This document shows, piece by piece, positions 729 to 13,731 of a stretch of 64,000 nucleotides of DNA. Both the position numbers and the translations under genes were made by a program. The stretch spans positions 17,771-81,770 of the forward strand of contig JAATGP010000007.1 of assembly GCA_015654635.1 (NCBI GenBank), in the 5' to 3' direction. A model generated the notes under the pieces. That model was not told the origin of the DNA. It saw only the letters and a list, made by a program, of their open reading frames with translations, and did no database searches. Position 1 is the stretch's first letter; every line of letters starts with the position of its first letter. Source of the stretch: Alphaproteobacteria bacterium. GTDB taxonomy: Bacteria > Pseudomonadota > Alphaproteobacteria > Micropepsales > Micropepsaceae.

Positions 729-795
729 CGGGCCACGCCTATATCCTCTGCCCAGGCGGCAGGCTTTTCGCAAGCGCTGCCGCCCATTCCTGGGC

Positions 796-1389
796 TTAGT
801 ACGTGTCGTGGCTCATTTCGTAGAGGTCATGGCGATCAAAGTCGGTCATAACCAGCTTGTTGTCGGCGTCGAAGCGCAGATCTGAGGATTCGATCCAGAC
901 ATCGCCCGGCTGATTGTCAAGGCTGACACGCAGCGCGCTGACGTGCCCCGATATAAGGGCGATTTCCACCACATGACCGACTACGTTACCGTTTGCTGTC
1001 GAAACGTTCGTGCCCAGAAGATCGTTGGTATTAACGATAAGGCGTTGCTCATAGCTTGCTGGCCACATGCCTCTGCGGTAGCGGGCGTGAGCGGCAATAT
1101 AGCGATCGCGGGCTGCCAGATAGGACTCGGCCCGCTCGTGATAGTTCGCCTGTTGCGCACGATAAATCTTAAGCTGCTCCTGATAGCGATCCACTTGCGC
1201 CTGATAGACGGCATTCTTATCCGTGCTCTGTGCATCGGCGGAAGCATTGGAGTTGGAGATACCTTGATTGAGCTGCTGTGTTTGCGCCTGTTCGGCGGGT
1301 GTAGAATCTGGCTGAGAGGCCATGGCAGGGCCCGTAGCGAGTAACACCAGCAAAGCGCCGGATAGTGGGACGGTTTTAGAGGACATCAT
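796..1389 (-). CDS. Secreted hypothetical protein, possible PRC-barrel-like C-terminus
   Basis: N-terminal signal peptide (LLVLLATGPAMA/SQ), a Gln-rich coiled region, and a C-terminal beta-rich segment. No antisense competitor with better coding character. Confidence 0.55.
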   Translation of the reverse strand: MMSSKTVPLSGALLVLLATGPAMASQPDSTPAEQAQTQQLNQGISNSNASADAQSTDKNAVYQAQVDRYQEQLKIYRAQQANYHERAESYLAARDRYIAAHARYRRGMWPASYEQRLIVNTNDLLGTNVSTANGNVVGHVVEIALISGHVSALRVSLDNQPGDVWIESSDLRFDADNKLVMTDFDRHDLYEMSHDTY

Positions 1390-1575
1390 AGTTACAGTTC
1401 CTTTGGGTTAGCTTCTCCGCTGAACGACAACTGCCGATTGGGGGGAGAACGTGTCGGAGACGCGGGTGATCCCGTGCCTTGGGTGTATTTCTGCGATGTG
1501 GTGGCGGTCGTAGTGAGCACGGCCTTGAATTCGCTTATATTATCTTCCTTAAACGGTATAACTCGGCGGGCGCAT

Positions 1576-2094
1576 TCACGGTCCTGTGCTGCCGTTCTCC
1601 CAGGCGTCGATGGTGCCGATCCACTGGCGGGCGCTCAACGCCGCTTCCGTCACGGTGGGTTCGGCCATCAAGGCCGGCGCATGGGGATAGCTCGCTGCGG
1701 CCTTCGCACCAATATCCGCGTCTGGCCATGTCTGCGGGGAAGGCGCTGGCGACGCTGCTCGACCGGAACGTATGCGGTTACTGTAGAGTTCGCCTTTGCC
1801 GTAGAATGCCGCTATGCCTGCAGCGAAGGCACCGGCAATGACGGCCCCTTCGACCGCCGCGACGATCAGCGTGCCGATGACCCCGAAGGTTAGGACATCG
1901 GATGTAAAGGGGATCGCAGCGAAAGCGACACCGAGAGCGAAGCCAAAGACACCGCCCAGCACAACACCGCGCCGGCCCCAGAATTTGACGCTGCCGCTGA
2001 CATCGTAGAAGGCAAAAATTTTCGGCTGGAGAATTCGTTTTGAAATCGACCTGGCCATTGTGTGCTTTCTAGCGGAGACCGCTTTGTAAGGCAC
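1576..2094 (-). CDS. Small membrane protein with Gly/Ala-rich TM pair (hypothetical); start may be Met13 at 2058
   Basis: Two glycine-zipper-like hydrophobic segments (GVVLGGVFGFALGVAFAAI, GVIGTLIVAAVEGAVIAGAFAAGIAAF). Motif copy S6 lies just upstream. Confidence 0.5.
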   Translation of the reverse strand: MPYKAVSARKHTMARSISKRILQPKIFAFYDVSGSVKFWGRRGVVLGGVFGFALGVAFAAIPFTSDVLTFGVIGTLIVAAVEGAVIAGAFAAGIAAFYGKGELYSNRIRSGRAASPAPSPQTWPDADIGAKAAASYPHAPALMAEPTVTEAALSARQWIGTIDAWENGSTGP

Positions 2095-2124
2095 AAATAC
2101 TATCCGCCAAGGCCACGGTGCTGC

Positions 2125-2145
2125 GATAGGATCGGACTCTACTCA
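2125..2145 (-). promoter_or_regulatory. Recurrent 21-nt motif copy S6 (TGAGTAGAGTCCGATCCTATC), function unknown
   Basis: 16/21 match to consensus TGAGTAGwTTCCGAnGCTGyC. Sense-oriented, 31-67 nt upstream of the 1576..2094 ORF. Confidence 0.45.
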
Positions 2146-2175
2146 GGTGGAGGCGCTAAGCGCTGCACTGCGCCG

Positions 2176-2661
2176 TCAACGGCTCGGTGTTGATGTTGCC
2201 GAAATATGTGCAGCGCTTGCGGGAGAGGAGGCTGGGCGTTGTATAAAAGACCACAATGAGGCGAGCGCGAGCATGATCATAATCACCGCTGCAAACAGAG
2301 CGATGCGGCCATGTGTTTGAGTGCTATAGTTGGGGAACACCTTGTTTAGCGGTCGTGCCAATACGGCGGCACCGCTTTGCGTCGGTAATAGCTTTATCAA
2401 ACGTTCGGCAATTTGGCCGGGCTCACCCGACACAGACGGTTTGACTTGCATGGCGAAGATCAGTGATGACAGTCTGCGCACGGCTGCATGCGTCGGCAAG
2501 AGAGACAATTGTGCCGCCTCAGTCCACGGATCAAGATCCATGCGTGCGATCGCCGACAGCACGCTGAGCGTGCTGCCATTCGGATCTGCGCCGATAACCG
2601 CGTAGAGAAAGGCATCGTATTCTTGTCCGATGCCTGAAATTTTGGCAGCAATGTCCGCCAT
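2176..2661 (-). CDS. Hypothetical protein with C-terminal TM anchor
   Basis: 161-aa ORF with a plausible soluble N-domain and a hydrophobic stretch (IALFAAVIMIMLALASLWSFI). No family recognised. Confidence 0.45.
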   Translation of the reverse strand: MADIAAKISGIGQEYDAFLYAVIGADPNGSTLSVLSAIARMDLDPWTEAAQLSLLPTHAAVRRLSSLIFAMQVKPSVSGEPGQIAERLIKLLPTQSGAAVLARPLNKVFPNYSTQTHGRIALFAAVIMIMLALASLWSFIQRPASSPASAAHISATSTPSR

Positions 2662-2728
2662 CAGACACCGTCTCTGGATATGGGCGAGGACAAAGTGCGG
2701 AAGATCGCGTCCTCACGTGGATCGCCGT

Positions 2729-3412
2729 TCAATAGAAGACGCCATAGCGCACTTGCACAATATCGCCGCTATAGCGGTCGATGAGCAGTGCATCATTGCC
2801 GACACGCACCCAAATGAGATCGGCTGGCGGGGCAAAAAGGCCAAACGTCAAAAAATCGGAAATCCAGTAGTTACGCGCGTAATAACCGCGCGGCAAGGTC
2901 TCGCCGTAACTCCAATGACGGTAACTGTAACCCTGGGGCGCGCGATAACTTCCGCTGTGGAATTTTTGCGGGGCTTGAATGTTGCGGCGATAGGCATTGA
3001 GCGCTGGCCTGTTCGCGTTACCCGTAGCTTGCCGGGTTTGCATGGCATTGCCCGGCCTCGAGACATCGTTCTGCCCGCGCCCGCCATGGGGCGTTTGACG
3101 GACATCGCCAGACCCCGGAAGAAAGTTGTTTGGCGTGTTCTGCGGGGCCGCCGCGCGAACGGCGCCTCTGTTCATAGTGGGATGTGCATTACCCGCGTTT
3201 CCATGCGTCTCGGTCCGCATCGCCGGACCCTGCCTGTTTTGCGGCGTGGCCGCCGGGCCTCTCTGCTCCTGGCGTGAAGCGCCAGCGGGGTGAGCATTGT
3301 TCGCATGTGCGGGCGCTCCGTGTTCCTCGCCGCGATGCTCATTGCTTTGCGCGGAGAGGGGAGTGAAGGCAAACAACCCCAATGCCGCAGCGCAAATAAC
3401 AAATTTTTTCAT
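2729..3412 (-). CDS. RcnB-like (Ni/Co-resistance-associated) periplasmic protein family
   Basis: Signal peptide MKKFVICAAALGLFAFTPLSA, a low-complexity His/Gln/Asn/Arg-rich middle, and a C-terminal RcnB-type signature (LPRGYYARNYWISDF..PPADLIWVRVGNDALLIDRYSGDIVQV). Confidence 0.65.
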   Translation of the reverse strand: MKKFVICAAALGLFAFTPLSAQSNEHRGEEHGAPAHANNAHPAGASRQEQRGPAATPQNRQGPAMRTETHGNAGNAHPTMNRGAVRAAAPQNTPNNFLPGSGDVRQTPHGGRGQNDVSRPGNAMQTRQATGNANRPALNAYRRNIQAPQKFHSGSYRAPQGYSYRHWSYGETLPRGYYARNYWISDFLTFGLFAPPADLIWVRVGNDALLIDRYSGDIVQVRYGVFY

Positions 3413-3479
3413 GTGAGTCTCCTATGCCGGGCCGGGATCGCGAGCCGAGCACCATCCATACCGGTGGCTCCGGCGACAG

Positions 3480-3500
3480 TACAGCCTCGGAACATACTCA
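3480..3500 (-). promoter_or_regulatory. Recurrent 21-nt motif copy S7 (TGAGTATGTTCCGAGGCTGTA), function unknown
   Basis: 18/21 match to consensus. Lies between the lpxR-like stop (3512) and the rcnB-like start (3412), sense-oriented, 68 nt from the ATG. Confidence 0.5.
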
Positions 3501-3511
3501 GGTTGGGGTGG

Positions 3512-4507
3512 CTAGAATCGGAAGGAGAGGGCAACAGCGCCAAATTTGCTCATAGCTGTTTGAGTTTTGTATTCGCGGCTGCGAATGACGTAGGTATAGG
3601 AGAGCCGAATAGCCCGGAAGGTGACGGCGGCGCCCAGATCATAGTCATAGACAAAGTTGAATTTGCTCACGCTGCGGCTGGTCTCGAAGGTATTGCCGTC
3701 GAGAAATAGATTGCGCGCGAGGGCCCGTCCATCTGCCCCGGCAAAAATATAAGCGCTGACGCCGCCATTGGGCTCGAAGAAATTCGAGCCCGGAAGGCTT
3801 GGATCGATCCGCATCGGACCATAGTCGCTCGGCAAGTTGAAACCCAAACGCGCCATCGTTCCGACACTGGCGAAATCGTAGACGTTGCCCACGGCGGCGC
3901 CATAGTTCGGTTCAATATCGAAGACCAAGCCCAAAAGCGATTTTGGTGGAATCAGTTTTATATTGCGCTGATATTGCACAATAAGACCGGGTTCGTTGCG
4001 TAGCTGATAATGCCAGCCATTGGCCTTTGCATCGCCGATAATGCCATGGACCCAGTTTTGGGTTTCTCCGGCAATCGACATCGGTCCAACCACGCCGATG
4101 GTGAATTGGAGCTGGTCCAGATGGGTTCCGCTGTCACCCACAAGGCCGAACGTACCAAACAGAAAACCGGCATAAGGCCGGTCCAGCAGTGAGGGATTGG
4201 TTACGGTTTTGTCCAGCGGCGTGAATATGGTTTGGCCAAGCGCATAACGCGTGCGCACATCCCCCGTTGCCGAAAAGAACGGAAGCCAGTGGGCCGTGGT
4301 GATCAACCAGTCGGGGGTGTCCTGCGGCGCCGTCGTGTAGTTGAGCTCCACGCCGTTCGTATAGTTATGGTCGGCTTTGGCGAACCAATCGTTCTCGAAG
4401 AGAATTCCGAAGGTTCCCTTTTCCAGATTCGGCTCATCCGCAGCCTTGGCCGCGCCGATGAGTAGAGCGGTGGACAACAGATAAAAGGCAATATGCTTCG
4501 CACGCAT
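3512..4507 (-). CDS. Lipid A deacylase LpxR-family (DUF2219) outer-membrane protein
   Basis: ORF 3512..4561. The likely start is MRAKHIAFYLLSTALLIGAAKA (signal peptide) at 4507. Carries an ENDWFAKADHNYTNGVELNYT-type motif and a beta-barrel-like C-terminus ending in F. Confidence 0.65.
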   Translation of the reverse strand: MRAKHIAFYLLSTALLIGAAKAADEPNLEKGTFGILFENDWFAKADHNYTNGVELNYTTAPQDTPDWLITTAHWLPFFSATGDVRTRYALGQTIFTPLDKTVTNPSLLDRPYAGFLFGTFGLVGDSGTHLDQLQFTIGVVGPMSIAGETQNWVHGIIGDAKANGWHYQLRNEPGLIVQYQRNIKLIPPKSLLGLVFDIEPNYGAAVGNVYDFASVGTMARLGFNLPSDYGPMRIDPSLPGSNFFEPNGGVSAYIFAGADGRALARNLFLDGNTFETSRSVSKFNFVYDYDLGAAVTFRAIRLSYTYVIRSREYKTQTAMSKFGAVALSFRF

Positions 4508-4624
4508 GAAATATCCCCGCTCCGGCAAGGGGCACATGCTGCTGTGTTCTTCGCCGGCCAATCACGTTCTGTTCATCCTTGGTCGTGCCCCAAGACGGTT
4601 TTGCCGTTCTGGGGCTGTCGCCAA

Positions 4625-5191
4625 TCAGTTCTTAATTCTGGTGATCTTCGTGCCCTCAAGGCTGATGCCGGCCATCAGGCCTTGCTGGCCGTAGATGAAG
4701 GCATAGGCATCGTCTTTGAGCGTGGAGCTGGAGAGGTTTTTGGCTTTGCCTTCGTCAACAATCACAACCGTCGGGCCCACGCCGATTTCCCAGCCATGGG
4801 TATTGCGGATGTAGCGCACGGCCTTGTCGGTCATCAGAAAGACGACATAGGAATAGGATTGGGCGCCAGCCTGAAGACCCCAGGAGCCGGTTACGGAATT
4901 GTAGTAGCCGATGACCGATGAACCCTTTTTCAGTTCACCTTCGCCATAGGCGCCACCAAAGATCAGGCCGGCCTTGACCACATTGGGAAAGATGAGAATG
5001 GCTTTGGCCTCATGGGACAGCCTCGCAGCAAAAGGGTGCAGCTTATAGAGCGCCGTGAGGGCCTGATCGGAATCGGTGTTGAGATCCGCCTCCGTCGCGG
5101 CATAGATGGGGGTGGTAACGCCGGCCACGACCAGCGAGGCGGTGGCAAGGGCGGTCGTCAAGAAAAGGCTTCTAAGAATGGTCATCGGCAT
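4625..5191 (-). CDS. Lipid-binding SYLF (Ysc84/DUF500) domain protein, secreted
   Basis: ORF 4625..5263. The likely start is MPMTILRSLFLTTALATASLVVAG at 5191. The GGAYGEGEL...WGLQAGAQSYSYVVFLM...IGVGPTVV pattern is typical of SYLF domains. Confidence 0.7.
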   Translation of the reverse strand: MPMTILRSLFLTTALATASLVVAGVTTPIYAATEADLNTDSDQALTALYKLHPFAARLSHEAKAILIFPNVVKAGLIFGGAYGEGELKKGSSVIGYYNSVTGSWGLQAGAQSYSYVVFLMTDKAVRYIRNTHGWEIGVGPTVVIVDEGKAKNLSSSTLKDDAYAFIYGQQGLMAGISLEGTKITRIKN

Positions 5192-5234
5192 AGTCCTGTT
5201 TTTGAATTTGGGAGGGTGTGGCTCGTTCGTACGC

Positions 5235-5714
5235 TTACTTTGGGACGATGTGGGATTCGACAAACCAGAGCTGCTGATCGATGCCGCGCGAGAGCTCGGT
5301 GAACAAATCGGCGGTCGTCATGTCGCCGAAGTCCGCAGCGGCATCGCTCGCCTCGCGAACCGATTGTCCAAAGGCGGCGAGCGCACCGGCAACGGCAAAA
5401 GTGTGCTGCTGCTCATCGGCGACGTCGACGCCATAAGGCACGAGAAAGGAGCGCTCGGCCGCTGTCTGGATGGTTCCTTGCGCAATGCCGCCAAGGCCGC
5501 GGGTACGTTCTGCAATCAAGTCGGAAAAGGCCTCCACCTCGGTGGATACCCTGTCGAACAACTCATGGATGGCAATGAAGTTCGGCCCACGCACATTCCA
5601 ATGGGCCTGCTTGGTCTGTCCGTGCAGGTCAATAGCCGCCGCCAAATGCTTGTTCAGTAGGTTTATCGACTGTGCCCGGATATTTTCTGATAACGTGTTG
5701 TGGGTGGGATACAT
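5235..5714 (-). CDS. dps: Dps (DNA starvation/stationary-phase protection, ferritin-like)
   Basis: 159 aa with LNKHLAAAIDLHGQTKQAHWNVRGPNFIAIHELFD, the characteristic Dps ferroxidase-site region. Confidence 0.9.
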   Translation of the reverse strand: MYPTHNTLSENIRAQSINLLNKHLAAAIDLHGQTKQAHWNVRGPNFIAIHELFDRVSTEVEAFSDLIAERTRGLGGIAQGTIQTAAERSFLVPYGVDVADEQQHTFAVAGALAAFGQSVREASDAAADFGDMTTADLFTELSRGIDQQLWFVESHIVPK

Positions 5715-5803
5715 TGTCGATCTCCAAACTTGTCAATTGCCCGCCGGCGCCAGAGTGATCCAGACCGTATCGATGGCGGTATAAGGGATGTAAGAAGATC
5801 GGG

Positions 5804-5824
5804 GACAGCGTCGGAATCTACTCA
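5804..5824 (-). promoter_or_regulatory. Recurrent 21-nt motif copy S4 (TGAGTAGATTCCGACGCTGTC), function unknown
   Basis: 21/21 match to consensus. Sense-oriented, 90 nt upstream of the dps ATG. A CTTATAC (-10-like) element sits 18 nt downstream of the motif. Confidence 0.6.
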
Positions 5825-5950
5825 AGGCGGCGCAGCCGTCGCGGGGTCTGTATTGGCTGCGACGGGCCCGGTGAGGTTAAGTTCGCCTGGCACTTGTGAG
5901 CGCTCGCGAGCGTCTGCTGATGGTCCGGATAGGGTAGCCAATATCCGTCG

Positions 5951-5971
5951 CTGAGGTTCGGAAACTACTCA
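5951..5971 (-). promoter_or_regulatory. Recurrent 21-nt motif copy S5 (TGAGTAGTTTCCGAACCTCAG), function unknown
   Basis: 17/21 match. This is a second copy in the 460-bp dps / kinase intergenic region, same orientation as S4 and about 147 nt further upstream. Confidence 0.45.
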
Positions 5972-6172
5972 GATCGGCAAAGGCCGCCTCCAGATGGAGG
6001 CTTTCTGGGAGCGGATGTGTAATGGATCGCGGAGCATTCTGTCGTGAAAACAGAGGTTTCTCCGATACGCCGAGCCCATTCGCGTGTTTGAGGCTATCCT
6101 TCTGCACGGCAGATTGTGATAGTGTAAGCTATCGCGTCTTGCTTCGAAGCTGCGTTTAGAGATTCATCGCGT

Positions 6173-9100
6173 ATGTCAAAGAGCCGCCCACGCCGGACAC
6201 CAAAGGTCCCGGTGTCCTCAAGGCCGCATCCCGTGCCGCCGCGCGATAAGAAAGCTTTGCCCAAAAAGCCAGCGGTTCCAGAGGCCGACTTACCGGAAGA
6301 GACACGGCCGGCGGGTGAACTTCTGGTCGTTGGCATTGGCGCTTCAGCCGGCGGTCTGGAGGCCTGTCGCAAATTCGTCAGTACGATTCCGACGGGAACA
6401 GCAATCGCCTTTATCCTGATACAGCATCTTGACCCCACCCATGGCAGCATGATGGTCGACCTCTTGAGCAGCCATACGCAGCTGACGGTGTGCCAAGCAA
6501 TGGACGGCATGGTGATCGCGGCAGACCATCTTTACGTCATTCCCCCGGGCACTTACCTTTCGGCCACCGATGGTAAGCTGCGCTTGTCGCCGCCGCAGGC
6601 ACGTCATGGTGCGCGATTGCCATTTGATTTCCTCTTGCGCTCCTTGGCAAAGGAGTATGGTGCCCGTGCCGTCTGTGTCGTGCTTTCTGGAACGGGACCT
6701 GATGGCAGTTCCGGATTGAAGGCGGTGAAGGAAAGGGGCGGGCTGATCATCGTCCAAGACCCCGCCGAAGCTGGCTATGACGGCATGCCACAAAACGCCA
6801 TTGCAACGGGGTTGGCTGATTTTGTCCTGCCCGCCGCAAGAATATCCGGAAAGATTATCCAGCACGCTACGCGAACGCCACTGTCCAGCCCAGGCGACAG
6901 CGTATCGCTTAAAGAAACCATTCAGGATCGGCTGCCGAAAATCATTGGATTGTTACGCACCAACACCAATCACGATTTCACGCTTTATAAACACGGTACA
7001 TTGGAGCGCCGGATTGAACGGCGCATGGTGATGGCTGGAATAGAAGCTGGTGACGGCGACCGCTATCTGAAACTCCTTGAGACCAGCAAGAATGAAGTCG
7101 AGCTTCTTGCCAAGGATCTCTTGATCAACGTCACGAGCTTCTTTCGCGATCCTAAGGTCTTCGCCACGCTGGAGCAAACAGTCATTCCGGAACTTATCCG
7201 GACCCATCCGGTTGGCCGCACGTTTCGTGTTTGGATTGTCGGCTGTAGCACGGGGGAGGAAGCCTATTCCCTCGCCATCTTGTTCCGGGAGCGGCTCGCG
7301 GCGGCGGCGCTCGGGATGGCACTCCAGATTTTTGCCTCCGACGTCGACCCGGAGGCGGTAGAAATCGCCCGCGAAGGTCTCTATCCGGCAAGCATTGAAG
7401 CCAATATGTCGCCAGAGCGCTTGGCACGCTTTTTCCGCAAGGAAAAGCAGGGCTATCGTGTCTCGCCGGAACTGCGCGCGGCGGTGGTCTTCACCGTGCA
7501 AGACGTGCTGAAAGATCCACCCTTCTCGCGCCTCGATTTGATCTCCTGCCGCAACCTGCTGATCTACTTGCGGCCCGAAGCACAGCTGAAAGCCATCTCG
7601 GTCTTCCATTTCGCCCTCAATACGGGCGGCCTTTTGCTGCTTGGTAGTGCGGAAACCGTTGGCAATGCCGAAAGCCATTTTGAACTGTATTCCAAGGCAG
7701 AGCGGCTGTACCGCCGGATCGGTCGTGCGCGGCTCGATACCTTGGGCATTGCCAAAGACAGCAGTTGGAGCGTGCGCGCCTTTGCCGGGGCCGGGCAGGG
7801 TAAGACGGCTTTGCGTCAAACCGCTATCGCCGACCTCTGTCAGCGAATGGTGATGGATGCGTTTGCGCCCGCCGCCGTTCTGGTCAATCGCAATCACGAA
7901 TGCCTCTATTCTTTGGGTCCAACAGACCGCTATTTGCGTGTTCCCGCTGGGCAGCCCACCTACGATCTGCTGGCTATGGTCAGCGAGGCGCTGCGCAGCA
8001 AACTCAAGCAGGGCATCATACAAGCCGGCGAAACCAAGGAGCGGGTATCTATTACGGGCGGCCTGAAAAGCCACGATGGTCACGTCTTCGCGATCACCGT
8101 CCAGCCTGCACCGGCTGAGGGTGAGGAACTCTTCCTTATTTGCTTCGTCAACGAGCCTGAGCCGGGTGATCGCAAAATCGGACCGATCCCGCTTGCCGAC
8201 ACGAGCAGAGTCGCCGAGCTCGAGCGCGAGCTGGAAACGGCCAAAACAGAGTTGCGCGACGCCATCCGCAATCTCCAGATTTCCGGAGAAGAACAGAAGG
8301 CCATCAACGAAGAAGCCTTATCGGTCAACGAGGAATTTCAGTCGACCAATGAGGAGTTGCTGACCTCCAAAGAGGAGCTGCAATCGCTCAACGAGGAATT
8401 GACCGCTCTCAACACACAATTGCAGGAAACGTTGGAACGTCAGCGCGAAACCTCCGATGATCTGCAGAACATTCTCTACAGCACCAATGTCGCAACGCTA
8501 TTTCTCGATCCCGAACTCAATATCCGCTTCTTCACACCGGCGACAAAGCTGCTGTTCAGCATTATTCCGGGTGATATCGGGCGGCCCCTCGCGGACCTTC
8601 ATTCGCTCTCGGCGGATAGTTCACTGACCGCCGATGCCCGTACGGTGCTGCACAATTTGGTTCCGATCGAACGCGAAGTAGAGGCGTTGGGCGGCGTCTG
8701 GTTCAGCCGCAGAATACTGCCGTACCACGCCCATGACGGTGCCGTCGAAGGTGTGGTGATCACCTTTACCAACATTACCGAACGCATACGCTCTGCCAAC
8801 GCTTTGGAAGCGGCCAAACAGCAGGCCGAGCTTGCCAATGTGGCGAAGTCGCGCTTTCTGGCCGCCGCCAGTCACGATTTGCGCCAGCCGCTTCAGACCT
8901 TGGCCTTGCTGCAAGGGCTGTTGGCAAAAATGGTCGTGGGCGAGGGTGCGCAGAGGCTGGTCGCGCGCCTAGATCTGACCTTGGGCGCCATATCCGGCAT
9001 GTTGAACACGCTGCTCGACCTCAATCAAATCGAGGCGGGAACGGTTCGCACCGAGATGGTGTCCTTTCCGATTGCCGGCTTGCTGGAGCGGATGCGGGAC

Positions 9101-10606
9101 GAATTCAGTTTTCATGCGGAGTCCCAAGGCCTGCAACTCCACGTGGTCCGTAGCAGCCAAGTTGTCATCAGCGATCCGCATCTGCTTGAGCAGATGATCC
9201 GTAATCTGCTCTCCAACGCATTGAAATATACGGAGAAGGGCAAAGTTCTGCTGGGCTGCCGGCGGCGCGAAGGAAAACTCTGCATCGAGGTGTGCGATAC
9301 GGGCATCGGCATTCCTTCGGACGAACTCAAGGCGATCTTCGACGAGTATCATCAGCTCGACAATGCCGCGCGTGAGCGTAGCCGAGGACTCGGTCTTGGT
9401 CTTTCCATTGTGCAGCGCTTGGGCAAGATGCTGGGCCATCCGGTACGGGTGCGCTCGCGGCCGGGCAAGGGTTCTATATTCTCTATTGAAGTCAAACTCG
9501 AACACGCGCCCGCGGTCGAAAAAATCAATTTGCATCGCCCGCCAACGCCGGTTGCCAGCGTTGGGCGAGGGGCGGGCGACATCCTTATTGTCGAAGACGA
9601 TACTGATGTTTGCGAACTCCTCGAACTGCTGCTCAAAAACGAGGGCCACCGCGTTGCCGCGGTGCATGAGGGCCTCGCCGCTATTGCGTTGCTCGAACGC
9701 GGCGCCATCAGGCCCGATCTGATTATCGCCGATTACAATTTGCCCAACGGGATGGACGGCCTTGAGGTTATCACCAGGCTGCGCGAAACAACGCAACGCA
9801 ATGTGCCAGCGATCATTCTCACCGGCGACATCACGACGAGTACGTTGCGCCGGGTTGCCGGACAACATTGCGTACAGCTGAATAAGCCTATAAAACCCGC
9901 CGAATTGATCCAGGTTATCGAGCGGCTTTTACCAAACTTGAAATCGGATGCCAACCTCCGTGCTACGGTCAGGACGGTTGCGCCGGTTGAGCACTCCAAG
10001 CCCGTGATTTTCATTGTCGATGACAATAACGAGATCCGGGCCGCCATGCGCGCGACCTTTGAGGCAGAGGGCAATATTGTCGAGGATTTTGTCAGTTGTG
10101 AACTGTTTCTCGAAGCCTACCGTCCAGGCACGGAAGGATGCCTTTTGATCGATGCCTATTTGCCGGGAATGGGCGGATTGGAATTACTGCAGCGTCTCCA
10201 AACGGCAGGCAATCATCTGCCGTCGATTATGATTACGGGCAACAGCGATGTGTCCATGGCAGTGCTGGCAATGAAAGCGGGGGCGTCGGATTTCCTGGAG
10301 AAGCCGATCAACAGCAAGGAGTTGCTCACTTCCGTTCATCGTGCTCTGGAACAGTCTAAGGATGCCACCAAACTGTTGAGCTGGCATGCGGAGGCGACGG
10401 ATCGCATCGCCACGCTCACGCCGCAACAGCGTCGCATTATGGATATGGTGCTGGCGGGTGATCCCAGCAAAAATATTGCCGCCGACCTTGGGATCAGTCA
10501 GCGCACCGTAGAGAACCATCGGGCTGCGATTATGACCAAAACGGGCGCTAAATCCCTTCCGGCACTGGCCCGGCTGGCGTTGGCCGCCGTCCCGGAAAAA
10601 GGCTAG
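6173..10606 (+). CDS. Giant CheB methylesterase-CheR methyltransferase-PAS-coiled coil-PAS-HisKA/HATPase-REC-REC-LuxR(HTH) fusion protein
   Basis: 1477 aa. CheB: GIGASAGGLEA, LSGTGPDGSSG. CheR: FFRDP, VWIVGCSTGEEAYSLA. HisKA: FLAAASHDLRQP. HATPase: CDTGIGIP..GLGLGLSIV. REC1: ILIVEDD..IIADYNLPNGMDG. The C-terminal FixJ-like module is IFIVDDN..LLIDAYLPGMGG..KP plus the LuxR HTH LTPQQRRIMDMVLAGDPSKNIAADLGISQRTVENHR. Confidence 0.9.
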   Translation: MSKSRPRRTPKVPVSSRPHPVPPRDKKALPKKPAVPEADLPEETRPAGELLVVGIGASAGGLEACRKFVSTIPTGTAIAFILIQHLDPTHGSMMVDLLSSHTQLTVCQAMDGMVIAADHLYVIPPGTYLSATDGKLRLSPPQARHGARLPFDFLLRSLAKEYGARAVCVVLSGTGPDGSSGLKAVKERGGLIIVQDPAEAGYDGMPQNAIATGLADFVLPAARISGKIIQHATRTPLSSPGDSVSLKETIQDRLPKIIGLLRTNTNHDFTLYKHGTLERRIERRMVMAGIEAGDGDRYLKLLETSKNEVELLAKDLLINVTSFFRDPKVFATLEQTVIPELIRTHPVGRTFRVWIVGCSTGEEAYSLAILFRERLAAAALGMALQIFASDVDPEAVEIAREGLYPASIEANMSPERLARFFRKEKQGYRVSPELRAAVVFTVQDVLKDPPFSRLDLISCRNLLIYLRPEAQLKAISVFHFALNTGGLLLLGSAETVGNAESHFELYSKAERLYRRIGRARLDTLGIAKDSSWSVRAFAGAGQGKTALRQTAIADLCQRMVMDAFAPAAVLVNRNHECLYSLGPTDRYLRVPAGQPTYDLLAMVSEALRSKLKQGIIQAGETKERVSITGGLKSHDGHVFAITVQPAPAEGEELFLICFVNEPEPGDRKIGPIPLADTSRVAELERELETAKTELRDAIRNLQISGEEQKAINEEALSVNEEFQSTNEELLTSKEELQSLNEELTALNTQLQETLERQRETSDDLQNILYSTNVATLFLDPELNIRFFTPATKLLFSIIPGDIGRPLADLHSLSADSSLTADARTVLHNLVPIEREVEALGGVWFSRRILPYHAHDGAVEGVVITFTNITERIRSANALEAAKQQAELANVAKSRFLAAASHDLRQPLQTLALLQGLLAKMVVGEGAQRLVARLDLTLGAISGMLNTLLDLNQIEAGTVRTEMVSFPIAGLLERMRDEFSFHAESQGLQLHVVRSSQVVISDPHLLEQMIRNLLSNALKYTEKGKVLLGCRRREGKLCIEVCDTGIGIPSDELKAIFDEYHQLDNAARERSRGLGLGLSIVQRLGKMLGHPVRVRSRPGKGSIFSIEVKLEHAPAVEKINLHRPPTPVASVGRGAGDILIVEDDTDVCELLELLLKNEGHRVAAVHEGLAAIALLERGAIRPDLIIADYNLPNGMDGLEVITRLRETTQRNVPAIILTGDITTSTLRRVAGQHCVQLNKPIKPAELIQVIERLLPNLKSDANLRATVRTVAPVEHSKPVIFIVDDNNEIRAAMRATFEAEGNIVEDFVSCELFLEAYRPGTEGCLLIDAYLPGMGGLELLQRLQTAGNHLPSIMITGNSDVSMAVLAMKAGASDFLEKPINSKELLTSVHRALEQSKDATKLLSWHAEATDRIATLTPQQRRIMDMVLAGDPSKNIAADLGISQRTVENHRAAIMTKTGAKSLPALARLALAAVPEKG

Positions 10607-10624
10607 GTAGATTCCGAAGCTGCC
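10604..10624 (+). promoter_or_regulatory. Recurrent 21-nt motif copy S3 (TAGGTAGATTCCGAAGCTGCC), function unknown
   Basis: 19/21 match. It starts on the TAG stop codon of the giant kinase gene, and the next ORF follows 4-52 nt downstream. Confidence 0.5.
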
Positions 10625-10627
10625 CCT

Positions 10628-10867
10628 GTGCCGCGTGGGTCCATTAAGCTCAAGCATCGGCTTTGCGAGGTCTCTATGCGGCAAAACTCGGTCGAACATT
10701 TGGGCGGCACGCGAATCCAAGTTGTGTTTCGCAACAGAGAGTCGTCGGTCCTTCTTTCGGGTGAGGCCACTCTGGAGCATATTGCCAGCACTTTGAGTGA
10801 AATGTCGAAGCGCTACGTCGAACGCCCGGTGGCAGTCTATGTCACGATGGCCCGTCCCGATTGTTAG
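10628..10867 (+). CDS. Small hypothetical protein (79 aa; 63 aa if it starts at Met17, nt 10676)
   Basis: Open frame between motif copies S3 and S1 with no family recognised. The coding call rests only on ORF integrity and position. Confidence 0.35.
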   Translation: MPRGSIKLKHRLCEVSMRQNSVEHLGGTRIQVVFRNRESSVLLSGEATLEHIASTLSEMSKRYVERPVAVYVTMARPDC

Positions 10868-10898
10868 CAATGCTGCGATGGGCTCTCGGCTCGCTGTT

Positions 10899-10919
10899 TG
10901 AGTAGTTTCCGACGCTGCC
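10899..10919 (+). promoter_or_regulatory. Recurrent 21-nt motif copy S1 (TGAGTAGTTTCCGACGCTGCC), function unknown
   Basis: 21/21 match, 110 nt upstream of the ATG at 11029. It shares an extra upstream block, TCTCGGC-N8, with copy S2. CCTATGA lies 18 nt downstream. Confidence 0.6.
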
Positions 10920-11028
10920 GCGGTTTTCCCTTCATCGCCTATGATCTCTTCGAGTGAGTGCATTGGGCGCTCGCCCCAGCTGGCGCGTTTTCTCCAGGAA
11001 AACATGCGCCGGATCACTCGAGGATTTC

Positions 11029-11679
11029 ATGATGTTGTATAGGATGAGCATGCTGCTCGCCACGGCGGCTATTGTCATCGCTGCCAGCGCTGCAAGCGCA
11101 GACGACCGCAATCAACCTGGGCCGAACAATGCTGGCCCACGCGACGACCAGAACCAGCCCACTTACGGTAGTGGTTACAATTACGGCTATGACGACGGTA
11201 TGGCCAAGCGCGACCGCAATGATCGTTATCGGCCCGAGCCTTATCGCCATGAGGTCCGTTATGACCGCGGCGCCTATTACTATGGCAGCGATTGCAGCAA
11301 CAACGTTGCAGGCACCGTTTTGGGCGCCGTCGCGGGCGGGTTGATCGGCGGCAGTGTCAGCCGTGGCAATGGCGGTGCGGTGCTTGGTGGTGTTATCCTT
11401 GGAGGATTGGCCGGCAATGCCATATCCAGAAACATAAATTGCGATGACCGCCGCTATGCCATGACGTCGTATAGCGCTGGATTCGATGGCAGAATCGGTG
11501 ATCGCCACGAATGGCGCAATCGCGATGGTGGCTACGGCACCTTTACGCCGACGCGGGAATATTCGCGGGCCGGCAATATGTGCCGCGATTTCCGCGAAAC
11601 TGGTTATAGCAACCGGCGTTCCTATGATCGAACCGGCACGGCTTGCCGTCATAACGACGGTAATTGGTACACGGATTAA
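11029..11679 (+). CDS. Secreted glycine-zipper / 17-kDa-surface-antigen-like protein
   Basis: ORF 10954..11679; the likely start is MMLYRMSMLLATAAIVIAASAASA (signal peptide) at 11029. Has a glycine zipper (GTVLGAVAGGLIGGSVSRGNGGAVLGGVILGGLAGNAIS) and a Cys-containing C-terminal surface-antigen-like domain. Confidence 0.7.
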   Translation: MMLYRMSMLLATAAIVIAASAASADDRNQPGPNNAGPRDDQNQPTYGSGYNYGYDDGMAKRDRNDRYRPEPYRHEVRYDRGAYYYGSDCSNNVAGTVLGAVAGGLIGGSVSRGNGGAVLGGVILGGLAGNAISRNINCDDRRYAMTSYSAGFDGRIGDRHEWRNRDGGYGTFTPTREYSRAGNMCRDFRETGYSNRRSYDRTGTACRHNDGNWYTD

Positions 11680-11697
11680 TAGCTGAAGTCTGTCTCG

Positions 11698-11718
11698 GCG
11701 GCCCGCTTGAGTAGATTC
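11698..11718 (+). promoter_or_regulatory. Recurrent 21-nt motif copy S2 (TGAGTAGATTCCGGGGCTGCC), function unknown
   Basis: 20/21 match, 85 nt upstream of the collagen-like lipoprotein ATG (11803). Confidence 0.6.
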
Positions 11719-11802
11719 CGGGGCTGCCGCCATCCTCGCTCCTGCCGTACGTTAACAATGTGCCGGCACAGTTCGCCGAGATTTTCTGAAAAGGATTCCG
11801 CC

Positions 11803-12108
11803 ATGAAATACTTAATGCCATTGGTTGCGCTGATTGCAGCACTCGGACTTTCCGCTTGCACAGGGCCCGCTGGCCCGGCTGGGCCGCAAGGCAACACCGG
11901 ATATACCGGCGACACGGGGTATACGGGCGCGACCGGCAGTACAGGTGCCACGGGCGGCGCGGGCGCGACGGGTGATACTGGCGCGACAGGCGTTCAGGGC
12001 GCGACGGGTGACACTGGCGCCAAAGGCGACAAAGGCACAAAGGGCACCAAAGGCAATACCGGTTCGGGCAACGGCTCGACGGTTATCGTCGTGCCGCCGC
12101 CGAAATAG
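11803..12108 (+). CDS. Collagen-like (Gly-X-Y)23 triple-helix-repeat lipoprotein, 101 aa
   Basis: ORF 11707..12108; the likely start is [19 protein letters not shown] (lipobox LSAC) at 11803. It has 23 uninterrupted GXY triplets ([19 protein letters not shown]...GTKGNTGSG), mostly Thr at Y, then a 12-aa tail. Confidence 0.75.
11863..12069 (+). repeat. Coding tandem repeat (9-nt GXY periodicity, with longer ggcgcgacgggtgaYactggcgc units)
   Basis: Direct reading of the collagen-like ORF. The repeat units are visible at DNA level. Confidence 0.8.
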
Positions 12109-12195
12109 GTGGTTAGGGTAATTGATATCTTTGATTTCGTTCTGGGCTGCGCGGAGCCAAGTTATCTTCGCAGCCCTCCTTAAGGAGATAATGCC

Positions 12196-12354
12196 GTGAC
12201 CCTGGGTTCTATACTGTTGATCATTCTGGTGCTGTTCATGATCGGTGCCTTGCCGAGATGGGGTTATAGCGCCAATTGGGGTTATCGGCCGACCGGTGGC
12301 ATTGGGCTCATTCTCATCATTGTTCTCGTTTTGGTGCTCGTCGGCCGGATATAG
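12196..12354 (+). CDS. DUF3309-like small membrane protein (52 aa), absent from ORF track
   Basis: GTG start 8 nt after the AAGGAGA RBS (12182-12188). Translation: MTLGSILLIILVLFMIGALPRWGYSANWGYRPTGGIGLILIIVLVLVLVGRI, two TM helices around the PRWGYS..WGY core typical of DUF3309. Confidence 0.7.
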   Translation: MTLGSILLIILVLFMIGALPRWGYSANWGYRPTGGIGLILIIVLVLVLVGRI

Positions 12355-12356
12355 AC

Positions 12357-12381
12357 GGAACAATTGGCGGTTATGGCGGTT
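12357..12381 (+). promoter_or_regulatory. Possible EcfG-type (general stress sigma) promoter GGAAC-N16-GGTT
   Basis: GGAAC at 12357-12361, a 16-nt spacer, then GGTT at 12378-12381 (consensus GGAAC-N16/17-CGTT). Lies about 30 nt upstream of the entericidin-like ATG. Confidence 0.3.
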
Positions 12382-12411
12382 GAGTGACCGCAGCCGAAAC
12401 GGAGTTTTGCA

Positions 12412-12567
12412 ATGTACAAAGGTACAAGGTTATTGGCCCTCATCATTTTTACGCTGGCTGGTGCCACGCTCCTCTTAGGCGGCTGTCACACGGTTGCGGG
12501 CGCGGGCGAAGACATTTCTCATACCGGCAAGGTCATCGAGAAGAGTGCCGACAAGAATACCCCTTAG
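12412..12567 (+). CDS. Entericidin EcnA/B-family small lipoprotein (51 aa), absent from ORF track
   Basis: Translation: MYKGTRLLALIIFTLAGATLLLGGCHTVAGAGEDISHTGKVIEKSADKNTP. The lipobox LLGGC followed by NTVxGxGxD-like and GxxIE motifs matches the entericidin pattern. Confidence 0.7.
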   Translation: MYKGTRLLALIIFTLAGATLLLGGCHTVAGAGEDISHTGKVIEKSADKNTP

Positions 12568-12617
12568 CCCCAACACGATTTGAAGCGTGGATATGCGTCC
12601 TGAAAGGACATTCTACA

Positions 12618-12944: not shown

Positions 12945-13225
12945 TACCGCCGACGGCGCAAACACAACGGTCTAACTGCGTAGGTGATATTCTGGCGTCG
13001 ATCGATGCAAGTCTTTGCGCCAACCGCGAACTGCACGTGTACTGATTATACGCCGGGATAGAGCGGCGGCGGAAGGGCGCCCCCGTCTATTCCGCCGCCC
13101 ATTCTTTTGCCCTGCCAAAACCTGCGCGACGACCGGCAGCTGGCCAAATCTGACCCAACGTCGCGCGTGTTCGTTATCCACATGGCACAGATCATTTCGA
13201 TCTGCCGGAACGCTTAAAAAAGGAA

Positions 13226-13723: not shown

Positions 13724-13731
13724 TACGGCAA

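Follow-up and report, generated by a model that had tools for sequence, protein, structure and literature searches.

In the PhyR-NepR-sigma EcfG system, which runs the alphaproteobacterial general stress response, promoters of the form GGAAC-N16-17-CGTT are controlled by sigma/anti-sigma partner switching, and the regulon includes genes for Dps, CsbD, DUF3309, entericidin, BON, PRC-barrel, and Gly-zipper proteins. The oxygen-sensing FixLJ two-component system of Sinorhizobium meliloti pairs a haem-PAS sensor, FixL, with the regulator FixJ, which has the REC plus GerE fold. Canonical FixJ sites are described as imperfect palindromes. Published sites are GTAGTTTCCC, selected by SELEX, and TAAGTAATTTCCCTTA, from fixK; the FixJ footprints on the pfixK promoter extend from −69 to −44 and from −57 to −31, and the sole known conserved FixJ target is fixK (PMC4999443). 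In Sphingopyxis granuli TFA, ICE3 is a mobile island with usp, dps, trx, and genes annotated as fixL/fixJ and LuxR, and ICE3-type islands occur in Sphingomonadales and Rhizobiales; the study deals with gene content and transcriptome, and an operator, a promoter architecture, and a CheBR-kinase regulator are absent from its report (bioRxiv 10.64898/2025.12.11.693706).

We analyzed a 64-kb stretch of DNA (the window) in which seven copies of a 21-nt block, here called the box, flank the gene for a 1,477-aa sensor kinase. The seven repeats are promoter elements, conserved across Alphaproteobacteria and lying ahead of general stress genes. Judged from sequence comparisons, the block is probably the operator of a FixJ-family response regulator in activator-dependent promoters, and the FixJ-like tail of the kinase probably switches the box-preceded genes on. 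On the best reading, the box defines a mobile stress regulon separate from EcfG. It has its taxonomic range and its kind of cargo in common with EcfG, but box promoters are unlike EcfG promoters in sequence and architecture, and control is proposed to lie with a DNA-binding response regulator rather than with partner switching.

Seven boxes in the window

The original prediction of seven copies proved right. With the pattern TGAGTAGWTTCCGANGCTGYC, allowing up to three mismatches, we recovered six sites (copies A, B, C, D, F, and G), where shuffled sequence would be expected to give 0.05; six were reached in none of 100 shuffles. The seventh site, copy E at 5951-5971, has a perfect 14-nt core and four mismatches, all in its 3′ part. 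A position weight matrix built from the seven copies scored them at 26 to 33 bits. Since the best other match in the 64 kb scored only 10.6 bits, the claim that the window holds no further copies stands too. Of the site coordinates, one needed correction: the copy placed at 11698 lies at 11708.

10899..10919, + strand: box copy A, TGAGTAGTTTCCGACGCTGCC, 5′ of the 17-kDa-antigen/Gly-zipper gene
11708..11728, + strand: box copy B, TGAGTAGATTCCGGGGCTGCC, 5′ of the collagen-repeat lipoprotein gene
10604..10624, + strand: box copy C, TAGGTAGATTCCGAAGCTGCC, 5′ of a 63-aa open reading frame (ORF), overlapping the kinase stop codon (TAG)
5804..5824, − strand: box copy D, TGAGTAGATTCCGACGCTGTC, predicted proximal dps promoter
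5951..5971, − strand: box copy E, TGAGTAGTTTCCGAACCTCAG, 147 nt 5′ of D, in the gap that separates dps from the divergent kinase gene
3480..3500, − strand: box copy F, TGAGTATGTTCCGAGGCTGTA, 5′ of the RcnB-domain gene
2125..2145, − strand: box copy G, TGAGTAGAGTCCGATCCTATC, 5′ of a 160-aa membrane ORF

As had been noted, all seven copies are intergenic (apart from the overlap of copy C with the stop codon), all seven point at the next gene, and the motif is nonpalindromic, being asymmetric and free of inverted-repeat structure. The distance to the start codon had been given as 30 to 110 nt; measured from the motif end, it is 52 to 110 nt for six copies and about 237 nt for copy E. The genes behind the boxes, assigned with Pfam except where another basis is given, are as follows.

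5235..5714, − strand: dps
4625-5191, − strand: Ysc84 gene, downstream of dps and without its own box
3512-4507, − strand: LpxR gene, downstream of dps and without its own box
2729..3412, − strand: RcnB-domain secreted protein, followed by a 161-aa ORF
1576..2058, − strand: 160-aa Gly-rich membrane protein, without a hit in the Pfam search and related to the C-terminal part of YflT-type general stress proteins
10676..10867, + strand: 63-aa ORF, without a hit in the Pfam search
11029..11679, + strand: 17-kDa surface antigen/glycine-zipper protein
11803-12108, + strand: collagen-repeat lipoprotein
12196-12354, + strand: DUF3309 gene
12412-12567, + strand: entericidin gene

Because they lie on the same strand with gaps of 58 to 88 nt, the collagen-repeat lipoprotein, DUF3309, and entericidin genes behind copy B, together with a 108-aa gene, probably form one operon. 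For the 63-aa ORF we rejected GTG 10628 as the start codon in favor of ATG 10676.

Predicted −10 elements and promoter layout

No canonical sigma-70 promoter was found at any window copy. The original prediction had described a −10-like element downstream of most copies. It is real, and its spacing is more regular than described, with a TA beginning at motif position 41, 42, or 44 in all seven window copies. Six of the −10-like hexamers are listed here; the remaining one is TATCCG.

10940..10945, + strand: predicted −10 of copy A, TATGAT, with TA at motif positions 42-43
11748..11753, + strand: predicted −10 of copy B, TACGTT
10645..10650, + strand: predicted −10 of copy C, TAAGCT, with the TA retained in a related metagenome-assembled genome (MAG)
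5778..5783, − strand: predicted −10 of copy D, TATACC, conserved at locus L022
3455..3460, − strand: predicted −10 of copy F, TATGGA
2097..2102, − strand: predicted −10 of copy G, TAGTAT, 2 to 3 nt more distant from its box than the other predicted −10s

The position predicted for copy A is conserved across 116 plus 98 sites. The 98 are independent secondary copies, selected blind to positions 17-18 and 40-44; 73% of them have TA at positions 40-44, compared with 1 to 11% in control windows. Position 17 is C in 90 of the 98, and position 18 is T in 97. Since the conserved TA-led −10 sits 19 to 20 nt after the block, the block would lie at about −52 to −33. In the layout that we propose, the protein would bind at the core TGAGTAGWTTCCGA (about −52 to −39), the CTGYC next to it (about −36 to −32) would act as a weak −35, and the TA-led −10 would follow 19 to 20 nt 3′ of the block. 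This layout predicts a transcription start about 52 to 55 nt downstream of the T that opens the box.

The block had been proposed to be either an activator site or the −35 of an unusual sigma factor, and the −10 spacing and the match to FixJ sites (below) favor the former. If the block were instead an extended −35 region that an alternative sigma factor, of ECF or sigma-32-like type, reads without an activator, its asymmetry, its strict orientation, and its fixed distance to a −10-like element would be explained, and its cargo is that of EcfG or sigma-B regulons elsewhere. The −10 is also frequently CCTAT or CTA, like that of alphaproteobacterial RpoH and RpoD promoters. We nonetheless regard this as improbable, since at least 26 nt separate the best-conserved core from the −10: positions 1-14, where conservation is strongest, stop 26 to 27 nt short of it, too far for region 4/region 2 spacing. 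In addition, the 25 commonest Pfam families of first downstream genes include no sigma family, and the recurrent neighbors of the box do include a FixJ-like helix-turn-helix (HTH). GGAAC-N15-18-CGTT is absent from the stress genes of the window, and elsewhere it shows no enrichment around boxes (3 observed versus 1.9 expected).

The box beyond the window

We looked for the exact pattern in one genome per species and found at least 120 loci. Among the 120 listed, about 100 belong to Alphaproteobacteria, from at least six orders, and others come from Caballeronia, Paraburkholderia, and Pseudomonas. The sites share the consensus TGAGTAGWTTCCGANNCTGYC. Motif position 8, left free in the scan pattern, is A or T in 113 of 116 sites, and no conservation was seen upstream of motif position 1 across the aligned sites. 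Two or more copies are present in 73 of the 120 listed loci; shuffled sequences gave 15 hits in 892 kb.

Orthologous promoters in different orders keep the box. A Rhizomicrobium MAG retains the window's boxes E, D, C, and A, although the flanks have diverged. At locus L086 we found a counterpart of copy B, the TAGG variant of copy C, an orthologue of the 17-kDa antigen gene, and a conserved reading frame for the 63-aa ORF, which in the related MAG shows a codon-like substitution pattern. Locus L022 keeps the box, −10, and 5′ untranslated region of copy D and has an equivalent of copy G at 4997. Copy E at that locus has a perfectly conserved 17-nt core within flanks that are about random, and its −10 is not conserved in this comparison; copy E may have an auxiliary role or may serve the promoter of the kinase gene.

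The first genes downstream of the box encode CsbD (8 cases), YflT (8), Zn-ADH (7), Dps (7), PRC-barrel (PRC, 7), phosphoketolase (XFP, 5), and BON (5) proteins; genes for alcohol and aldehyde dehydrogenases also follow boxes. The genes of the window recur in this setting: dps follows a box in five other loci, LpxR and Ysc84 genes in two (L023 and L120), RcnB genes in two (L065 and L067), and homologs of the 160-aa ORF in four (L014, L049, L052, and L066).

These data also bear on the idea that the block plays no part in transcription initiation and is instead a REP/MITE-like dispersed repeat or a transcribed RNA element. It is indeed short, multicopy, and exclusively intergenic, but we find this idea hardly credible. 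Sites are gene oriented rather than random, with a conserved same-strand gene downstream of 83 of 182 sites versus 35 of 182 in the mirror control, and they are retained at orthologous promoters across orders. Conservation is limited to the 21 nt plus the −10, inverted-repeat structure is absent, an Rfam search gave no match, and the predicted start site lies downstream of the box. In four annotated plasmid loci (L122-L125), 15 of 15 sites are intergenic, mostly 100 to 260 nt before a same-strand coding sequence.

A FixJ-like output module as candidate box binder

The protein that would bind the box is encoded between copies E and C.

6173..10606, + strand: 1,477-aa sensor protein with CheB-CheR, a Glu-rich coiled coil, PAS_10, HisKA/HATPase, REC1, REC2, and GerE (Pfam)
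9998..10603, + strand: REC2-GerE (FixJ-like) output module, the proposed box binder (PDB and NCBIfam)

The best PDB hit of REC2-GerE is FixJ (5xso, E value of 3.5e-36), and the NCBIfam FixJ model NF006900 ranks first at 192.7 bits. Since this score falls under NCBI's cutoff of 255 for FixJ, the module is best described as a FixJ paralogue. The HK-REC1 part resembles the NahK/ErcS′ kinases that occur with the LuxR-type regulators ErdR/ErbR in Pseudomonas aeruginosa (NahK/ErcS family best in NCBIfam, 369.8 bits against a cutoff of 400), and the output of the window protein is likewise of the NarL/FixJ class; here, however, the input is CheB-CheR-PAS_10 and the regulator is fused. No recognizable Hpt domain was found in this two-REC protein.

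The box itself resembles FixJ operators. Its positions 4-13 match both the SELEX site and the fixK site at 9 of 10, with core GTAGTTTCCG aligning to the former and box TGAGTAGTTTCC aligning to TAAGTAATTTCC in the latter. Like the window boxes, the S. meliloti pfixK box is oriented toward its gene; as in pfixK and pnifA, the box lies 5′ of or overlaps the −35, and a canonical −35 is absent from both promoter types. There are also clear differences. The window box is asymmetric and ends ..CCGANNCTG, whereas the FixJ site ends in the palindromic ..CCCTTA. Provided that the −10s are predicted correctly, the box is about 12 bp (about one helical turn) nearer the −10 than is the high-affinity pfixK box. 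The sensor is a CheB-CheR-PAS_10 hybrid kinase with its regulator fused rather than haem-PAS FixL, the recognition helix is ISQRTVENHR rather than the canonical ISPRTVEVHR, and the box precedes dozens of general stress genes rather than fixK and nifA.

We consider REC2-GerE the most likely box binder in the window. Once phosphorylated, it would bind the box, recruit RNA polymerase, and switch on six transcription units: dps (with Ysc84 and LpxR), the RcnB gene plus the 161-aa ORF, the 17-kDa antigen gene, the collagen-DUF3309-entericidin operon, and the single genes for the membrane protein and the 63-aa product. That the module binds, that it activates and does not repress, and which holoenzyme, phosphotransfer route, and signal are involved are what we infer here. 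Of the 120 listed loci, which were chosen by motif alone, 26 have a REC-GerE module no more than 8 kb from the motif that shares at least 67% identity with the kinase C terminus. The modules found near boxes, including those in Caballeronia, Paraburkholderia, and Pseudomonas, occur in full-length, PAS-HK-only, and stand-alone REC-GerE forms. Two loci with homologs of the CheBR kinase, in which the tblastn match stops short of REC2-GerE, had no site at up to one mismatch. All 27 homologs compared have the recognition helix ISQRTVENHR unchanged; the HTH as a whole is FixJ-like and almost invariant.

In the other 94 listed loci, the 8 kb around the motif show no regulator of this kind, so the box could equally be bound by a paralogue encoded at a distant genomic site. 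This is consistent with the idea that the box is a FixJ-family operator used here by another family member (a stand-alone REC-GerE protein, or the canonical oxygen-responsive FixJ of a FixLJ pair, encoded outside the window), the kinase being merely co-located or coregulated. Stand-alone REC-GerE proteins with the same recognition helix adjoin boxes in Rhizobium sp. ASV20 (L012), Pseudomonas (L110), and R. capsulatus (L001), and HK-REC-GerE genes lie downstream of the box in several loci, so they are likely to be targets too. We judge this unlikely for the window, where the kinase's own module is the only one seen near the boxes and the seven boxes flank the kinase. As for canonical FixLJ, its recognition helix differs, the canonical S. 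meliloti fixK box is four positions off the core and was missed by the core search, and the top 25 Pfam families of 141 first downstream genes include no obvious fixK/nifA-type target.

Asymmetric 20-bp sites that overlap the −35 are typical of monomeric activators, and the box is of this kind. It might thus be bound by an unrelated factor (e.g., an AraC- or MarA-like monomer), perhaps a repressor, with the likeness to FixJ sites reflecting coincidence or coregulation. We give this little credence: with all offsets and both strands counted, a 9/10 match to the SELEX 10-mer has a chance probability of about 7e-4, the HTH and the box are invariant in parallel, and clustering of the neighboring ORFs revealed no other recurring regulator family (the top clusters being unlabeled by family).

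The original prediction had tied the box to a local regulon of the LuxR-type output domain of the kinase. The FixJ-like module and its presence in 26 of 120 loci favor the link to that domain, but the regulon is not local, as the box is found throughout the class and also on beta- and gammaproteobacterial plasmids. Kinase orthologues are present in 15 to 28 of the 120 listed motif loci, also on plasmids, and islands with kinase and box, which resemble ICE3-type islands as mobile carriers of stress genes, are often plasmid borne with IS elements and occur in Burkholderiaceae and Pseudomonas. A Methylocapsa plasmid has a split kinase and many CsbD/DUF3309 genes yet a single box.

The box in the window and in its nearest relative

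The original prediction placed seven copies of a 21-nt box around the gene for a 1477-aa kinase and none in the other 50 kb of the window. A search with TGAGTAGWTTCCGANGCTGYC at up to three mismatches recovers six sites, against 0.05 expected from dinucleotide shuffles, and the seventh copy is recognized by its core. In the list below, box positions are counted from the first T and the core is positions 1 to 14.

Box copies and kinase gene in the window
10899-10919, plus strand: copy A
11708-11728, plus strand: copy B
10604-10624, plus strand: copy C, overlapping the kinase stop codon
5804-5824, minus strand: copy D, proximal copy upstream of dps
5951-5971, minus strand: copy E, distal copy upstream of dps; 14-nt core perfect, 3′ end diverged
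3480-3500, minus strand: copy F
2125-2145, minus strand: copy G
6173-10606, plus strand: kinase with the Pfam domain order CheB-CheR-PAS_10-HisKA-HATPase-REC-REC-GerE
9998-10603, plus strand: REC2-GerE output module of the kinase

A PWM built from the seven copies scores them at 26-33 bits, and the best score in the remaining 50 kb is 10.6 bits, which bears out the claimed absence of further copies. The positions first given also stand, except that 11698 should read 11708. All seven copies are intergenic, if copy C with its stop-codon overlap is included, and each points in the direction of the next gene, as had been proposed. The genes read earlier as dps, RcnB-like, surface-antigen-like and collagen-like agree with the Pfam families Dps, RcnB, 17-kDa/Gly-zipper and collagen repeats; DUF3309 and entericidin were also found in the window.

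The nearest relative that we found is a Rhizomicrobium sp. MAG contig, in which two adjacent blocks picked by the box scan (L086 and L022) are syntenic with the window and the kinase domains are 85-94% identical. Conservation upstream of orthologous genes in relatives had been set as a check, and four copies are kept there: A and C, the latter with its TAG stop-codon variant; D, together with its −10 and leader; and E, as a 17-nt identity island amid unalignable sequence (L022 1865-1885). Because this comparison revealed no conserved −10 for copy E, that copy may be an auxiliary site or may act on the divergent kinase promoter. A 63-aa ORF shows a codon-like substitution pattern between the two genomes.

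Several other features of the window deserve mention.

Other features of the window
15-728, plus strand: polysaccharide deacetylase gene, cut by the window start
796-1389, minus strand: 197-aa secreted protein with a weak PRC-barrel match, without a box upstream here; a homologue follows a box in another locus (L062)
2176-2661, minus strand: 161-aa ORF without a Pfam family, a recurrent island member with homologues (..LSVLSA(L/I)AR(L/M)DLDPW..) in seven of the motif loci listed
5984-6003, plus strand: hairpin GCCTCCagatGGAGGC and a following TTTCT between dps and the kinase gene; no plus-strand gene that it might terminate is obvious upstream
10946-10990: 45-nt block (ATCTCTTCGAGTGAGTGCATTGGGCGCTCGCCCCAGC...) in the predicted 17-kDa/Gly-zipper leader, identical in the Rhizomicrobium MAG although both flanks diverge; it may be a leader or regulatory RNA element

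Box anatomy and promoter geometry

We scanned one genome per species with the exact pattern TGAGTAGNTTCCGANGCTG and obtained at least 120 loci. Among the matches listed, 116 non-redundant sites show no conservation upstream of position 1; position 8, left free in the scan, is A or T in 113 of them, and a second conserved element occupies positions 41-47 (T/C41, A42, a43, T46/47). To avoid selection bias, we gathered another 98 copies in these loci, using nothing but the 14-nt core as the criterion. C17 is present in 90, T18 in 97 and C21 in 70 of these independent copies, and TA falls within positions 40-44 in 73%, compared with 1-11% in eight control windows. The refined element reads TGAGTAGWTTCCGA-NN-CTGYC-N19/20-TAnnnT. 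A TAT-containing −10-like element had been predicted for most window copies; TA is in fact present in all seven (TATGAT, TACGTT, TAAGCT, TATACC, TATCCG, TATGGA and TAGTAT for the set A to G).

If the TA element is the −10, the core is predicted to span about −52 to −39 and CTGYC (xTGxC) to take the −35 position with a spacer of 18-19, and transcription would start 52-55 nt past box position 1. The start predicted in this way is always upstream of the assigned start codon, leaving leaders of 19-77 nt. A promoter scan found no canonical sigma-70 promoter at any window copy, as expected for activator-dependent promoters. Reckoned from the predicted start, the promoters combine a conserved −10 at a fixed distance, a poor −35 and a site centred at about −45, as in activator-dependent promoters of the sigma-70 type. 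A terminator scan at the window boxes gave no usable terminators, so operon structure here is inferred. By eye, we saw no convincing hidden dyad or direct-repeat symmetry in the box.

The earlier suggestion that the block might be the −35 of an alternative sigma factor is not favoured by this geometry. From the end of the core (position 14) to the start of the −10 (41-42) there are 26-27 nt where 15-18 nt would be needed, and −35-like spacing is found only for the weaker CTGYC. This distance, together with the lack of any sigma family in the top 25 Pfam families that the downstream genes hit, makes an alternative sigma factor unlikely. The boxes had been said not to fit the promoter of EcfG (ECF15), the alphaproteobacterial general-stress sigma factor, and this held: GGAAC-N15-18-CGTT is absent at the window box genes, and the two window matches (GGAAC-N16-17-CGTT) lie elsewhere at chance level. 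Near boxes in other loci such promoters are not enriched (3 near 224 boxes, 1.9 expected). Overlap with CcrM GANTC, which reads GATTC when position 8 is A, was also rejected, being present in only about a quarter of sites.

Distribution and cargo of the boxes

About 100 of the 120 loci listed carry an Alphaproteobacteria label, among them Rhodobacter, Paracoccaceae, Sphingomonadales, Caulobacterales, Hyphomicrobiales, Rhodospirillales, Acetobacteraceae and Rhizomicrobium. Eight of the loci listed are labelled "uncultured proteobacterium", and the remainder listed include Caballeronia (three), Paraburkholderia and Pseudomonas. Two evident chance matches, in an archaeon and in Granulicella, lie within long ORFs and have C at position 8. 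Some listed MAG contigs duplicate alphaproteobacterial ones. Box surroundings in bins labelled Actinomycetes or Verrucomicrobiae are near-identical to those of alphaproteobacterial or Acetobacteraceae MAGs (L057 versus L048 and L117; L064 versus L097), and these cases are probably mis-binning and not true occurrences.

At least two cores with up to two mismatches are present in 73 of the 120 loci listed, often back to back on opposite strands; shuffled loci gave 15 such core matches in 892 kb. Because the E-values of two-mismatch cores are at chance level, we counted as evidence only cores with at most one mismatch. One stretch of a MAG chromosome (OY969816.1, 2,424,001-2,440,000; loci L087 and L092) has eleven cores with up to two mismatches in 16 kb, so box-dense stress islands much larger than that of the window exist.

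The annotated plasmid loci of Caballeronia, Methylocystis, Sphingomonas and Rhizobium have 15 of 15 sites in intergenic DNA, most of them 100-260 nt upstream of a same-strand CDS; the products include a general stress protein, USP, BON, HAD phosphatase, DUF3309, slipin and GrpE, among others. With the crude, conservation-based and heuristic gene calls used for the 120 loci listed, a conserved gene follows just downstream on the same strand at 83 of 182 unpaired sites, versus 35 of 182 in the mirror orientation, and 7% of sites fall inside conserved ORFs. Pfam families of the first downstream genes at 141 non-redundant sites are headed by CsbD and YflT (8 each), then Zn-ADH, Ferritin/Dps and PRC-barrel (7 each), XFP phosphoketolase and BON (5 each) and REC (4); SOUL, transketolase, oleate hydratase, aldehyde dehydrogenase, P-type ATPase, Band 7, RcnB, CBS and LTXXQ also occur. 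Targets in the window recur behind boxes in other loci listed: Dps in five, the membrane ORF in four, RcnB and entericidin in two each, and LpxR, Ysc84 and the 197-aa PRC-like protein in one each.

These data exclude the reading of the box as a dispersed repeat (REP/MITE) or RNA element, for which orientation-random or genic copies had been the proposed sign. The orientation bias of 83 to 35 speaks against it, as do the lack of conservation outside the 21 nt and the −10 and the retention of the box at orthologous promoters. An RNA element also has no Rfam match: covariance models returned nothing relevant at E ≤1 in window positions 1-14000.

On the Caballeronia sp. SBC2 plasmid pSBC2-4 (L122), a perfect minus-strand box points into 340 nt past the kinase stop that carry no annotated gene (24386-24725), which suggests an unannotated small ORF or sRNA. 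The same island has arginine deiminase, ornithine decarboxylase and antiporter genes of the acid-resistance type.

The FixJ-like module near the boxes and a possible circuit

After clustering all ORFs of the 120 loci listed, we compared each domain of the window kinase with them. Orthologues of the kinase domains, at 60-90% identity per domain, are present in 15 (CheB) to 28 (REC1) of the loci, and within 8 kb of the box a GerE domain at least 67% identical to that of the kinase is found in 26 of the 120 motif-selected loci listed. The output module is the constant element among the kinase-related proteins near boxes. It occurs as CheB-CheR-PAS-HK-REC-REC-GerE, PAS-HK-REC-REC-GerE, HK-REC-GerE and stand-alone REC-GerE, the last near boxes in Rhizobium sp. 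ASV20, Pseudomonas sp. BR20 and R. capsulatus. This co-localization is far above chance for a one- or two-copy gene (we estimate well under 1%). All 27 sequences, from Alpha-, Beta- and Gammaproteobacteria, have the recognition helix ISQRTVENHR unchanged, which matches the near-invariance of the box.

Full-length kinase orthologues are found on plasmids of Methylocystis, Phyllobacterium, Caballeronia, Lichenicola, Sphingomonas, Polymorphobacter, Methylocapsa, Asticcacaulis, Acidiphilium, Roseateles, Novosphingobium, Rhizobium/Agrobacterium and Roseicitreum. Each of six plasmid kinase loci that we examined has at least one core with at most one mismatch, against about 0.05 expected per locus. 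The Azospirillum and Sulfitobacter homologue loci, where the tblastn match stops short of REC2-GerE, have no core at that threshold. A BLAST search of the 21-mer against plasmids, which has low sensitivity, hit six records, five of which belong to the plasmids listed as kinase carriers; the Beijerinckiaceae record is outside that list. IS elements are too abundant in the Acidiphilium cryptum plasmid locus for it to be informative, and Rhizobium sp. Y9 has a 48%-identical kinase in an EPS cluster with only one box, which may represent a diverged subfamily.

Residues 1277-1477 of the window kinase have Bradyrhizobium japonicum FixJ as their best solved-structure match (5xso, E 3.5e-36), followed by StyR. 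Among NCBIfam models the FixJ equivalog comes first for the module at 192.7 bits, with a cut-off of 255 (S. meliloti FixJ scores 320.9); judged by this score below the cut-off, the module is a FixJ-like paralogue and not FixJ. For the HK-REC1 part, the closest family is NahK/ErcS (369.8 bits; cut-off 400). S. meliloti FixJ shares 48% identity with the window module in the GerE domain, and both have R-T-V-E-x-H-R in the recognition helix.

The box itself resembles FixJ sites. Positions 4-13 (GTAGTTTCCG) match the first class of SELEX-selected FixJ site, GTAGTTTCCC (PMC4999443), at 9 of 10 positions, and TGAGTAG resembles the second class. In the S. meliloti pSymA record the fixK box, TAAGTAGTTCCCCTTA, lies 85 nt before the ATG, points at the gene and matches the window box at about 10 of 13 positions. 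As in a FixJ-type operator, the sequence agrees with experimental sites and a FixJ-family regulator, which is predicted to bind it, is encoded alongside. Binding by an unrelated factor is disfavoured by the SELEX match, which has a chance probability of about 7e-4, and by the co-localization of the HTH with the boxes.

There are differences, however. Canonical FixJ sites are imperfect palindromes with the right arm CCCTTA, whereas the box is asymmetric and has CCGANNCTG instead; in pfixK the box is about 12 bp farther from the −10 than here, by our predicted −10. Four positions separate the canonical box from the core, enough to tell the two operator types apart. In this organism the box may really be read by a different protein of the FixJ family, whether a stand-alone paralogue or canonical FixJ; the latter is made less likely by the differences in helix and box. 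Most of what is known of FixJ-type regulators concerns fixK and nifA. According to PMC4999443, fixK is the sole conserved target known for FixJ. No fixK-type family is among the top 25 Pfam families of the first downstream genes. We also rejected a canonical FixLJ system: the module is below the equivalog cut-off, the sensor is CheB-CheR-PAS_10-HK where FixLJ has a haem-PAS FixL, and stress-protein families prevail among the first downstream genes.

On the reading that the kinase-encoded module is the regulator, the phosphorylated FixJ-like module would bind TGAGTAGWTTCCGA just upstream of a weak −35 and recruit RNA polymerase. Probably this would be the housekeeping holoenzyme, as alphaproteobacterial RpoD promoters typically have a CTA/TAnnnT −10. 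Because the window module is the C terminus of the very kinase that the boxes flank, the simplest circuit would be a single protein leading from signal to promoter; this kinase has two REC domains and no Hpt. The cargo and the carrier habitats (peat, acidic soils, lichens) suggest stationary-phase, acid or osmotic stress as the inducing condition. Dps and CsbD increase in concert with a GroES-type ADH and a stress-induced protein in Methylocystis sp. SC2 under ionic stress (PMC9600857), which is circumstantial here.

Between CheR and PAS_10, at window positions 8288-8449 (kinase residues 706-759), the kinase has a stretch of heptads rich in Glu/Gln (NEEFQSTNEELLTSKEELQSLNEEL...). By its resemblance to chemoreceptor methylation helices, it is a candidate intramolecular substrate of CheB/CheR.

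General stress control in Alphaproteobacteria is usually credited to PhyR-NepR-EcfG. Tentatively, and at somewhat less than even confidence, we suggest that the box, its FixJ-like reader and the CheB/CheR kinase form a self-contained, mobile general-stress regulon that is parallel to and independent of that pathway across the class and has spread on plasmids and islands to Burkholderiaceae and Pseudomonas. In the fused form, one polypeptide would detect the signal, adapt by adding methyl groups to its own Glu-rich coiled coil and removing them, phosphorylate itself and bind to promoters.

Operators for response regulators at activator-dependent promoters are a well-known kind of element, and by sequence the box is recognizably FixJ-type. 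Apparently undescribed are an operator that is highly conserved across the class, has a fixed promoter geometry and serves a large general-stress cargo separate from the EcfG regulon, as well as a dedicated FixJ-like subfamily, in many cases joined to CheB/CheR hybrid kinases, and the mobile nature of the package as a whole. A search of the literature outside subscription journals found no bacterial paper with the motif as 9- to 16-mers on either strand, and no functional study of CheB/CheR-fusion kinases or FixJ-like stress regulons. The sole relevant match for the motif was GTAGTTTCC(C), via the FixJ SELEX citation. Closest to this is a preprint (bioRxiv 10.64898/2025.12.11.693706) describing an ICE with stress cargo, on which genes are annotated as fixL/fixJ and LuxR; the preprint gives no operator.

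In about a hundred sampled species (at least 120 loci), genes for CsbD, YflT, Dps, BON, PRC-barrel, dehydrogenase and phosphoketolase proteins have a near-invariant 19- to 21-bp operator with fixed promoter geometry in front of them. The FixJ-like module that travels with this operator keeps its recognition helix unchanged from Rhizomicrobium to Pseudomonas. If the predicted binding is true, this would amount to a second, mobile stress regulon with an easily scanned operator, give a function to the widespread, uncharacterized "CheB/CheR fusion" hybrid kinases and offer a compact sensor-to-promoter module for synthetic use.

In Methylocystis iwaonis (L123, 19018-19380) and Sphingomonas paeninsulae (L124, 19399-19758), a single-domain response regulator gene lies divergently beside the kinase, with a box upstream in Methylocystis; the gene is absent at the corresponding place in the window. 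Its product is a possible phosphorelay partner.
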